Source: a virus (taxonomy: Duplodnaviria; Heunggongvirae; Uroviricota; Caudoviricetes). Taken from it: a stretch of DNA of 64,000 bases. The notes beneath the pieces were generated by a model. That model did no database searches. It saw nothing but the letters and a program-made list of their open reading frames with translations, and had not been told where the DNA came from. The stretch lies in IMG/VR virus record IMGVR_UViG_3300009285_002354, positions 1 to 64,000 of that record. One strand, given 5' to 3'. Positions 17,583 to 18,918 of the stretch are shown in pieces. Positions within the stretch are counted from its first letter, which is position 1. Each line of letters opens with the position of its first letter. The translations under genes and the position numbers were made by a program.

Positions 17583-17645
17583 AATATTTCTTTTGGAGTT
17601 CGAGATACCCTCGCCTTCAGGCGAAAACTTTAGTACATTTTCCTA

Positions 17646-17673
17646 TTGATACATTAGGTCTATAGGTTAGAAT
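17646..17673 (+). promoter_or_regulatory. sigma70-like promoter (TTGATA-16-TAGAAT) that gives an almost leaderless mRNA
   Basis: The -10 element ends 6 nt before the ATG at 17680, and there is no SD sequence. Confidence 0.5.
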
Positions 17674-17679
17674 CAGAGC

Positions 17680-18216
17680 ATGAACCTTACGCTCAAGCTC
17701 AAGTTGCTGCCGTCGGATGCCCAGAAGCAGATGCTTCGTGACACCATGAAGGCATTCAACGAAGCTTGTAACTACGTCTCGGACGTAGCCCACAAGATCA
17801 AGACGGCCTCGCAGGTGCGTCTGCATCACGAGTGCTACTACCGGGTGCGAGAGCAATTTGGCTTGTCTGCCCAGATGGCGGTTCGCGCCATCGGCAAGGT
17901 CGTTGAGGCTCTCCGCCGAGACAGGAAGAAGCATCACCGATTCAATCGCTACGGGGCCATCGTCCTGGACAATCGGCTTCTCACCTACAAGGCGATGGAT
18001 AGGGTTTCCATCCTCACCTTGCAAGGCCGGCAAATCATGCCGTTCGTCTGCGGTCAGTATGGGCAACAGAGGCTCATGCGTGTGCGCGGACAAGCTGACC
18101 TGAGTTATCAGGATGGGAAGTTCTACTTGCTCCAGAACTGTGTTCTGCCCGACCCCGACACCATAGACACGACCGGGTTCCTGGGGATGGACTTGGGTAT
18201 CGTGAACGGAGACTAA
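17680..18216 (+). pseudogene. tnpB: TnpB (IS200/IS605 OrfB) N-terminal fragment truncated just after the RuvC-I motif
   Basis: MNLTLKLKLLPSDAQKQMLRDTMKAFNEACNYV is a TnpB N-terminal signature. It ends ...GFLGMDLGIVNGD*, where GMDLGI is RuvC-I. RuvC-II/III and the zinc finger are absent downstream. Confidence 0.7.
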
Positions 18217-18222
18217 GTAACT

Positions 18223-18918
18223 ATGTCCAATCATTTCACCTGTAGAGTTCTTGATGAACAGGAAATTATTGCGGCCTATAGAACTGGAGAATCCACAACT
18301 TCCATCGCTCATCGCTTGAAAATAAACACGCGCCGGCTGCGTAGAATTTTCAGAAAGGAAGGCGTTGTCACAAGGACTCCATCGAAACAGCTTCTTGGCA
18401 ACCAACACCATCGTAAATACCATCTCGACCACGATGAGCTTGTGCGCCTTTATGTGCAGGAAGAGAAAAGCATACGTGCTATCACTCAAATTACAGGCTG
18501 CAAAAACGTCCGATACCATCTCATTCTTCATGGCATCCCTCGTCGCAGTTTTATGACCGCCCGAACAGGCAAAGGGGACAATATACCGGCAGAGTCGCGT
18601 GCCAGGCTTGGTGAAGCGTGCCGTGGCGAAAGACATCCTTTCTGGAAAGGTGGACTCACACCAGTTGAAAAGCTGTTTTATCAGAGAGCGCCGTGGAGAA
18701 AGATCTCTATGGCAGCTAAGCAGCGTGACGGCCTTACCTGCCGCCGATGCGGCAAGCAGTTCCCTATCCGGAAACTGCGCGCTCACCATATACTTGCGCG
18801 CACGCAAGGTGGCGCAGATAATCTTGATAACCTGATTACCTATTGCAATCCTTGCCATCGTCGTGTCCATTTTGCGTCTACTATCGCCTGTCAAACGGCC
18901 GTACGCGGAGCGGCTTAA
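18223..18918 (+). CDS. HNH endonuclease with an N-terminal HTH domain (homing-endonuclease-like)
   Basis: C-terminal CRRCGKQF...LRAHHI...GGADNLDNLITYCNPCHRRVH, plus GERHPFWKGG. N-terminal HTH TGESTTSIAHRLKINTRRLRRI. Starts 6 nt after the stop of the TnpB fragment. Confidence 0.8.
   Translation: MSNHFTCRVLDEQEIIAAYRTGESTTSIAHRLKINTRRLRRIFRKEGVVTRTPSKQLLGNQHHRKYHLDHDELVRLYVQEEKSIRAITQITGCKNVRYHLILHGIPRRSFMTARTGKGDNIPAESRARLGEACRGERHPFWKGGLTPVEKLFYQRAPWRKISMAAKQRDGLTCRRCGKQFPIRKLRAHHILARTQGGADNLDNLITYCNPCHRRVHFASTIACQTAVRGAA

Follow-up and report, generated by a model that had tools for sequence, protein, structure and literature searches.

The stretch of DNA analysed here (the window) comprises positions 1 to 64,000 of the Caudoviricetes record IMGVR_UViG_3300009285_002354, a 106.8-kb contig from a groundwater metagenome. 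At 17583-18961 it carries what reads, from its sequence, as a 1,379-bp IS200/IS605-type tnpB element, non-autonomous and without TnpA, lying between two phage genes. Two open reading frames (ORFs) are present in this element on the plus strand. ORF A (178 amino acids, 17680-18216) corresponds to the amino-terminal half of a TnpB protein and ends in GMDLGIVNGD*, and ORF B (231 amino acids, 18223-18918) encodes an HNH endonuclease whose start is 6 nt past the ORF A TAA codon. This layout agrees with an earlier note on this DNA, which had described a 178-amino-acid ORF stopping at RuvC-I with an HNH gene 6 nt downstream, opposite in strand to the neighboring phage genes; the genes on either side are indeed encoded on the minus strand. 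The two ORFs share a frame and are separated by a single stop codon and two sense codons. TnpB homology stops at the left junction (AAC GGA GAC TAA GTA ACT, 18205-18222, plus strand), in which GGAG probably serves ORF B as ribosome-binding site. TnpB halves followed by a nuclease gene in this manner recur at other loci, and an origin through homing-endonuclease genes that prey on tnpB elements is tentatively favored. Related loci are referred to below by L numbers and related proteins by P numbers.

The TnpB half, the HNH gene and the element ends

ORF A passes NCBIfam model TIGR01765 for the TnpB N-terminal domain (50.8 bits, cutoff 47.25) and covers positions 2-204 of the 389-position guided_TnpB model, its whole-protein score being 16.8 bits against a cutoff of 100. 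Full-length TnpBs (365-385 amino acids), collected by a search of 1.8 billion representative proteins, match ORF A through their residues 1-175 only, with 45-53% identity, and the remaining three residues of ORF A belong to the junction. The profile search therefore placed the ORF within TnpB rather than in an unrelated family, and alignment to intact TnpBs, which the earlier note had proposed as a means of mapping the breakpoint, put the end of homology after residue 175, as expected for a TnpB N-terminal fragment cut right after RuvC-I. The content of ORF A is limited to the WED and REC lobes and the RuvC-I strand GMDLGIV (GMD171LG). RuvC-II, the zinc-finger/TNB domain and RuvC-III are absent, with no Pfam match to ORF A (PF07282 included), and hence ORF A is not the nuclease. 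It retains the residues that are invariant across its family.

An AlphaFold2 model of ORF A (predicted local distance difference test score, pLDDT, 89; predicted template modeling score, pTM, 0.81) contains strand 1, a three-helix bundle and a beta-sheet, and residues 156-178, including the RuvC-I motif, are unstructured. Foldseek comparison of this model returned Cas12f (TMq 0.6-0.73) and ISDra2 TnpB (8ex9/8exa), the best structural matches being the WED-REC lobes of Cas12f, ISDra2 TnpB, ISFba1 TnpB and Fanzor2. As modeled, ORF A would comprise a fully folded WED+REC unit and a flexible RuvC-I tail.

The missing C-terminal half of TnpB was sought by tblastn with seven C-halves as queries against every frame of the whole 64-kb window, and none was found (all E values were at least 0.085). 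An uncut query, P0130, gave a strong match in the window, to ORF A only. The earlier note had likewise seen no RuvC-II/III or zinc-finger coding sequence downstream, and its proviso that correction of a sequencing frameshift might restore the C-terminus in frame can be set aside, since the C-half is present in no frame; a frameshift or a hidden C-half is ruled out by the same negative result. The tnpB loss at this locus amounts to ~165 codons, extending from just past RuvC-I to the RuvC-III motif and including the RuvC-III aspartate.

ORF B matches the PF01844 HNH model at residues 173-216 (E 3e-12, 46.9 bits, cutoff 21.4), and its N-terminus gives weak helix-turn-helix (HTH) matches, which bears out the description of a free-standing HNH gene with an HTH following the fragment. 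The C-terminal HNH domain carries an intact CxxC...HH...N...CxxCH motif, and C173, C176, H188, H189, N203, C208, C211 and H212 are invariant in a four-sequence alignment of homologues; the middle region contains a conserved GKGDN/WKGG sequence. Two HTH-like helical modules (approximately residues 12-45 and 61-102) appear in an AlphaFold2 model that is poor and of low confidence (pLDDT 60.5, built from 4 sequences). The phage family phrog_8446 ("HNH endonuclease") aligns across residues 49-219 with an E value of 1e-25, the nearest HNH-domain sequences are those of IscB, McrA and group II intron maturases, and the match to relatives from cultured phages is limited to the HNH motif. No similarity between ORF B and TnpB was detected. 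GC content at third codon positions (GC3) was 0.47-0.51 for the HNH gene versus 0.75-0.78 for the adjoining TnpB half in two contexts, the window values being 0.47 versus 0.75. ORF B is best read as an intact HNH enzyme with HTH-type DNA-binding modules of its own, belonging to a phage HNH family.

In contrast to the claim of the earlier note that the omegaRNA-coding 3' end is missing, the downstream search for a residual right end or scaffold that it had recommended located a homologue of ~85 nt at 18877-18961 (plus strand), overlapping the HNH stop codon. Sequence directly after the HNH stop codon is conserved among HNH loci (described below), and a profile hidden Markov model (HMM) of this sequence matches the 3' ends of full-length tnpB genes, covering the last ~60 nt of the ORF and ~45 nt downstream. 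To avoid circularity, covariance model R1 was constructed from eight full-length tnpB 3' ends only. R1 has a single match in the 64-kb window (18877-18964, plus strand, 40.7 bits, E 1.4e-9), and across ~70 full-length loci it finds one match per locus, at the tnpB 3' end. When 79 sequences were aligned to R1, 95.5% of cells paired versus 71.8% when shuffled and at most 46% when slid, and double changes were observed in 18 of the 21 pairs, although these pairing and covariation figures are somewhat inflated because the alignment was fitted to the model.

In the window, stem 2 of this element (GCGGC-TTAAA-GCCGC, 18910-18924) contains the ORF B stop codon and is followed by ATCTGCAAA. The right-end hairpin (18934-18953, CCGCCTGC-TTCA-GCGGGCGG) is intact with 8 bp, and is followed by TAGTTGAT (18954-18961). 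Stems 2 and 3 of the scaffold are kept and stem 1 is broken, its left arm being gone at the HNH junction, where homology to tnpB sets in again with the RuvC-III "NI" codons. Apart from stem 1, the element is colinear with those of L180, L110, L117 and L095. The 3' RNA element of the subfamily occurs as two scaffold types that differ in stem 2. An apparent ~45-nt internal deletion in the window copy was rejected as an alignment artefact of mixing the two types; the window copy is colinear with "type 2" except in stem 1. Three copies of a related element in one genome are identical through GTTGAC and divergent after it, which places the right end of the window element at 18961 (GTTGAT). By its position, ~100-nt length, three stems and boundary end, 18877-18961 corresponds to a TnpB omegaRNA scaffold and right end as established for other elements (PMC8612924, PMC10097598). 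Following the IS200/IS605-TnpB paradigm, in which sequence 3' of the right end forms the guide portion of the omegaRNA (PMC8612924), the flank CTCTTCCTATAACAGGCACA (18962-18981, plus strand) would occupy the guide position of a working element, and the corresponding target would take the form TTCAT + CTCTTCCTATAACAGG.

Upstream of ORF A, a sigma-70-type promoter (TTGATA-16-TAGAAT, 17646-17673, plus strand) matches the consensus at 10 of 12 positions and ends 6 nt ahead of the ATG, predicting a leaderless mRNA. The earlier note had treated this promoter as the fragment's own. The sequence and spacing it reported hold, but the promoter is not special to the fragment: an extended -10 element 6-7 nt ahead of the ATG is also found in L007, L001, L002, L132, L120 and L145, and this geometry is a general trait of the TnpB subfamily. 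In relatives, the left end has the form GGA(A/T)AC-hairpin-AGGAAGG, and its hairpin loop equals the loop of the right-end hairpin. The left-end remnant in the window (17583-17645, plus strand) has kept part of the subterminal hairpin, consisting of the 5' arm, the loop (TTCA) and 4-5 nt of the 3' arm (17604-17623, GATACCCTCGCCTTCAGGCG). An HMM built from the left ends of 30 full-length loci matches the left ends of L001, L015, L115, L007 and L176, and its match in the window is just 20 nt long with a score of 4.7 bits; the left-end hairpin of the phage copy appears to have decayed. Motif screening of all six translated frames of the window revealed no Y1 (HUH) TnpA, which is a weak test, and the same kind of search identified an adjacent TnpA in only 2 of ~200 related loci. 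Given a decayed left-end hairpin and no TnpA nearby, the element is probably immobile as a transposon.

The sequence (N)TCAT adjoins the left end in every compared locus (TTCAT in L007, L140 and L128, CTCAT in L176 and GTCAT in L123), and the three copies in one genome (L140, L141 and L128) diverge exactly upstream of TCAT. In the window, TTCAT at 17578-17582 (plus strand) is assigned by inference as the putative target or target-adjacent motif (TAM)-like sequence 5' of the left end. It contains the start codon (CAT being ATG on the minus strand) of a phage gene for a 111-amino-acid product (17247-17582, minus strand). The left end similarly adjoins the start codon of a divergent upstream gene in L007 (5349-5353) and L176 (2895-2899), all three contexts being phage or mobile-element DNA. 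Note that (T/C)TCAT reads ATGA(A/G) on the opposite strand, and that insertion parts the gene from its original upstream sequence.

When the element is excised in silico, so that 17582 meets 18962, the two flanking phage ORFs regain an ATGA stop/start overlap, and this junction is plausible as the state before insertion. The small upstream ORF (18943-19209, minus strand), which acquires five codons (STTAR*) from within the right end, would then end in ...YRKR-TGA and overlap the ATG of the 111-amino-acid gene. No homologues of the 111-amino-acid protein were found outside this phage among 5.8 billion proteins. Two viral scans with the flanking proteins and a protein search yielded no empty site; phage relatives, through which the earlier note had hoped to map the breakpoint, were represented solely by the same phage with the element in place. 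The same occupied junction is present in two other groundwater samples. The surrounding genes form a replication module (DnaB, a radical-SAM protein and RusA), and an integrase gene is located farther along the contig. Because the transposon ends bracket the whole unit, the phage may have gained the chimera as one piece; the data fit this equally with later invasion of an intact phage-borne TnpB.

Recurrence of the arrangement and history of its parts

In the set of 5.8 billion proteins, the HNH family of ORF B (its own contig protein aside) consists of three close homologues and one weak match, and a DNA scan added one further locus, L015. All three close homologues directly follow a truncated TnpB, in the metagenomic elements L007, L008 (with L009 to L013, hereafter L008-L013) and L014, and they are 47-52% identical to ORF B. 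L007 encodes a 177-amino-acid TnpB half, 45% identical to ORF A and ending in GVDMGIVA*, followed by an HNH protein 50% identical to ORF B; this pair is likewise a plus-strand island amid minus-strand genes. In L008-L013 and L014, the end of the TnpB half abuts the HNH gene. The same kind of 3' element is located after the HNH gene in L007, L008-L013 and L014. L015 has a left end, promoter, HNH gene and 3' element, and its TnpB half is absent. Positions 118-341 of L015 hold the left-end hairpin, a consensus promoter (TTGACA-17-TATAAT), a leader of ~120 nt containing a long hairpin (CTTACTTGGGCAACA...GGTGTTGCCCAAGTAAC), after which the HNH gene begins.

Three other types of nuclease gene were found after a TnpB half. 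These are LAGLIDADG genes in L001 and L177 (the latter with the motif "LAGIFDSEGC"), a PD-(D/E)XK gene in L175 (PF11645, E 2e-7) and an EndoVII-like gene in L220, whose ORF runs in frame into the RuvC-III motif and tail of TnpB (...NADQNAAINIAARANVN*). At these loci R1 detects the 3' element behind the nuclease gene of L001 and of L220, and gives a weak match in L177. Phage proteins include relatives of each of the four nuclease types. At all HNH loci, as at L001, tnpB homology resumes with the RuvC-III "NI" codons, and both junctions fall at catalytic-motif codons (GVDLGIVN of RuvC-I and NAAxNI of RuvC-III); the replaced segment always runs from RuvC-I to RuvC-III.

The TnpB half and the nuclease ORF share a reading frame in seven of eight loci (P = 0.003-0.045), L001 being the sole locus out of frame. 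The in-frame junctions (window 18214-18225, L007 5986-6003, L008 182-187, L014 68-73, L177 1201-1209, L175 2344-2352 and L220 777-794) each contain one stop codon (TAA, TAG or TGA) together with 0, 0, 1, 1, 2, 4 or 4 sense codons.

This arrangement is rare. Among ~119 subfamily loci taken from genomes and viral contigs, only L115 is without the C-half and none has a nuclease in the slot. The subfamily as a whole (L095-L216, ~120 loci, ~365-385 amino acids, NADxNAAxNI type) is common in viral contigs, where 38 of 39 matches show both TnpB halves. An initial impression that most relatives are short proved to be a ranking effect of the protein database; in the search of all representatives and in two DNA scans, full-length proteins of 360-385 amino acids dominate. 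L176 (P0117), once listed as a truncated TnpB, is only frameshifted and was taken out of the set. The C-terminal tail of P0065 (...NICLLYTSDAADE) resembles what we take to be translated sequencing-adapter sequence, in which case this "truncated TnpB" would be an assembly artefact.

Truncated TnpBs that lack both a nuclease gene and the 3' element occur in L002 and L115, and comparison of L115 with its full-length sister L109 gave a ratio of nonsynonymous to synonymous substitution rates (dN/dS) of 0.77. The nuclease-free half in L002 lies within 465-7233, between a restriction-modification pair (N6_N4_Mtase and RE_CfrBI) with a DUF6923 protein and a zinc-ribbon/adenylate-cyclase/AAA ATPase protein, a neighborhood that looks like a defence island. 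Other insertions were also observed in these loci. At 2501-5298 of L222 (Candidatus Hydrogenisulfobacillus filiaventi, LR778114.1), a tnpB gene of the same subfamily is split after GVDLGI by a nested IS605 (Y1_Tnp and TnpB, minus strand), and the C-half (4612-5259) and 3' element (5208-5298) are kept; the RuvC-I codons are thus an insertion site for other elements as well. In L175, a left-end-like sequence (206-249) is parted from the TnpB half (1807 onward) by a minus-strand gene for an IS4-family DDE transposase, within 206-1655, which is probably a further nested insertion.

By pairwise identity, the TnpB halves that adjoin nuclease genes are not one lineage. Whereas the halves of the window and L007 share the 45% identity given above, that of L007 is 76% identical to L176, the frameshifted locus still holding its C-half. 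The L001 half is 87% identical to P0041 (a 264-amino-acid fragment extending past RuvC-I) and 75% identical to full-length L095, the L177 half is 77% identical to the fragment P0111 and 73% identical to full-length L206, and the L175 half is 81% identical to P0034 (201 amino acids) and 77% identical to P0093 (303 amino acids). The 3' element is of "type 2" in the window and of "type 1" in the other HNH loci. This difference is more informative than pairwise identity of the 3' element, which in L007 is too conserved to be assigned to either cassette or backbone. Taken together, the incongruence of the TnpB halves, the 3'-element types and the GC3 values indicate that the nuclease cassette joined different tnpB backbones, or that its flanks were exchanged by recombination with resident elements. 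The HNH family seems to be mobile independently of the flanking gene, at a conserved site in its target gene.

Recombination near the junction is also suggested by P0053 and P0075, of the L220/L221 lineage. These proteins share the GIIQS* end and are identical over residues 1-128, and their last 45 residues contain 10 differences, in which each resembles a different longer relative (P0047 and P0077). For TnpB halves from nuclease-bearing loci, synonymous divergence (dS) was saturated in every informative pair. A relative-rate comparison of L007 and L176 against L195 gave only a ~1.4-fold difference.

Competing explanations for the replaced RuvC core

We put at roughly even the chance that homing-endonuclease genes invade tnpB, replace its RuvC core and leave the ends of the element intact. 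The HNH, LAGLIDADG, PD-(D/E)XK and EndoVII-like genes would then be homing-endonuclease genes parasitic on tnpB elements, with tnpB exploited as a conserved, multi-copy target. Homing endonucleases typically occupy catalytic-motif codons. We infer that the nuclease cuts intact tnpB copies and that recombinational repair copies its gene in, left homology being supplied by the TnpB N-half and RuvC-I, and right homology by RuvC-III and the omegaRNA region. Because loss of tnpB would be free of cost to the host, no intron or intein would be needed. ORF A, which on this account would be incapable of DNA cleavage, may persist chiefly as a source of flanking homology, of a promoter and of a platform for the translation of ORF B, and a chimera whose transposon ends and guide-RNA region were left in place could still be helped in trans. 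The earlier note had proposed either homing-endonuclease invasion or HNH-mediated replacement. Replacement is close to the data, but the event was not a single accident, as the architecture recurs in L007, L008 and L014.

Several observations weigh against homing as stated. The RuvC core is replaced in every case and never merely interrupted; simple homing insertion should sometimes leave the C-half, which is seen only with the nested IS605 of L222. The ORF A-type half is intact in the window, L007, L001, L177, L175 and L220, and saturation of dS leaves selection on it unmeasurable. A half that is purely a remnant would not predict the in-frame bias of seven in eight, and L015, with HNH gene, left end and 3' element but no TnpB half, implies that the N-half is dispensable as a homology arm. 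The viral scans and protein search found no nuclease-free allele at the same locus, no empty site and no cleavage site, and ~9 nuclease-swapped loci are known versus ~115 full-length loci sampled.

Some of these points are what would be expected of a modular RNA-guided nuclease, an explanation that we regard as doubtful. ORF A would bind the omegaRNA and find the TAM-plus-guide target, and cutting would fall to the adjoining nuclease, acting as a separate partner or within a fusion protein that arises when ribosomes now and then read through the one in-frame stop codon, so that the RuvC lobe is functionally swapped. The replacement is always precise in this respect, the RuvC core being gone and a complete WED-REC fold and ~100-nt scaffold being kept, and conservation of the scaffold extends across HNH loci with just ~50% identity between their proteins. 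The WED-REC part alone is resolved on RNA/DNA in solved ISDra2 TnpB/Cas12f complexes (8ex9_A, 7wju_B and 8dzj_B), and a transposon with many sites could be "homed" only by a flank-derived guide and not by an enzyme of fixed specificity (PMC8612924). Yet omegaRNA binding by TnpB also uses the RuvC domain that is missing here (PMC10097598), the window copy of the scaffold has a broken stem 1, and L015 has an HNH gene and scaffold with no ORF A. Cooperation with one and the same half-protein would be required of four unrelated nuclease families, and ORF B and LAGLIDADG enzymes generally have DNA-recognition domains of their own. All three stop codons are in use at the junctions, including TAA, which is poorly read through. 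The incongruence in phylogeny and GC3 fits invasion better than a co-evolved pair. In its general form, a natural two-part enzyme in which WED-REC and omegaRNA target and interchangeable HNH, LAGLIDADG, PD-(D/E)XK or EndoVII-like nucleases cut, in trans or as a read-through fusion, would explain why seven of the eight nuclease ORFs are in frame; we judge it slightly more doubtful still.

It is decidedly unlikely, in our estimation, that ORF A has been domesticated as an RNA-guided DNA binder free of nuclease activity (an analogue of TldR or Cas12m, or a dominant-negative competitor of TnpB) with the nuclease gene as a passenger. The ORF is intact, confidently folded and retains family-invariant residues under a conserved promoter of its own, and nuclease-free truncated N-halves do exist (L002 and L115). 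These truncations, however, have no 3' RNA element and resemble decay, as does the dN/dS value for L115 and L109, no conserved host-gene neighborhood was seen, and the N-halves nest among mobile full-length lineages rather than forming an immobilised clade. Simple decay, in which an ordinary phage HNH gene landed once in a phage-borne tnpB, has very little to recommend it. HNH genes are common in phages, and the left end and scaffold stem 1 have deteriorated in this copy, but in three unrelated contexts this HNH family stands between a truncated TnpB and the same 3' element, and four nuclease families share the slot. Every close HNH homologue adjoins a truncated TnpB (L015 lacking the half), and with protein identities of 45-52% these loci are not one element sampled repeatedly. 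An artefact or split gene, that is, a frameshift or an intron- or intein-borne HNH gene with a C-terminal exon downstream, is next to impossible. In its favor, introns and inteins located at catalytic motifs are frequent hosts to homing-endonuclease genes, ORFs A and B are in the same frame, and the relative L176 (P0117) is truly frameshifted. Against this, the C-half is missing from the window, ORF B is unlike TnpB, and the junction is the same in independent assemblies and samples. In an Rfam scan of the window, no intron or other family reached the gathering threshold, and among matches with E <= 10 none was relevant. A group I or II intron or an intein was rejected on the grounds of this result, the stop codon between the ORFs and the lack of a downstream exon.

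Relation to known systems and implications

The element resembles IS200/IS605 tnpB elements, or the systems termed OMEGA (for obligate mobile element-guided activity) such as ISDra2 (PMC8612924, PMC10097598), in having a WED-REC half with RuvC-I, a promoter adjoining the gene, a scaffold overlapping the 3' end up to the right-end hairpin, hairpins with the same loop, of which the left is a remnant, and probable insertion beside TCAT. It differs from them in that RuvC-II/III and the zinc-finger/TNB domain are absent, with a foreign HNH gene instead, there is no TnpA and the left end is decayed.

Free-standing homing-endonuclease genes of phages spread by a mode termed intronless homing. As with such genes (HNH, LAGLIDADG, PD-(D/E)XK and EndoVII-like, for example F-CphI; PMC13565253), a small nuclease ORF with its own DNA-binding modules is located at catalytic-motif codons of a conserved multi-copy gene, nuclease families alternate at the site, and composition and phylogeny are decoupled from the flanks. 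Here, unlike there, the target is itself selfish and is replaced over ~500 bp rather than interrupted or flanked. IStrons, in which a group I intron is combined with IS200/IS605 or IS607 (PMC4227781, 10.1101/2023.11.20.567912), are similar as IS605-family chimeras with a second selfish element, often with truncated ORFs and with terminal structures kept. The window is without a ribozyme, however, and in place of a 5' intron it has a gene for a protein nuclease within tnpB.

Derivatives of the TldR, Cas12m and Cas12k type (PMC10705468, PMC10691335) are also TnpB relatives without DNA cleavage for which guide-RNA binding is possible. They retain the whole RuvC fold with mutated residues and have been immobilised by host genes, whereas in the window the fold is deleted and the transposon ends are kept, in a phage. 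IscB, an omegaRNA-guided protein comprising RuvC with an inserted HNH, has an HNH domain similar to that of ORF B, and a guide-RNA gene is nearby in both. The similarity extends over a 50-residue HNH motif only; ORF B lacks RuvC, PLMP and bridge helix, and the RNA is of the TnpB type, 3' of the genes. IscB model NF040563 scores 42 bits against ORF B (cutoff 175) over the HNH stretch only, and no HEARO match was obtained in the window. The locus is thus not a TnpB nuclease, an IStron, an intein, an IscB or a TldR.

The architecture is not described in the literature that was searched. A 2023 census of TnpB and Cas12 mentions neither HNH nor homing, and truncated TnpB with nuclease genes is described neither in a 2026 review of homing endonucleases and OMEGA systems nor in a survey of IStrons.

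TnpB is the ancestor of Cas12, and its genes are among the most abundant in prokaryotes. The recurrent swap suggests either that selfish nucleases prey on TnpB transposons or that nuclease modules are exchanged in nature. If homing genes specialise on tnpB, they would add a layer in which selfish elements prey on selfish elements, and would account mechanistically for the many tnpB fragments ending at RuvC-I. If the WED-REC half remains functional with a guide RNA, these loci would be natural experiments in the swapping of catalytic modules, with a bearing on the assembly of Cas9- and Cas12-type enzymes and on the building of compact editors. Under either reading, the slot is precisely delimited by RuvC-I and RuvC-III, and the proteins and RNAs involved are few.

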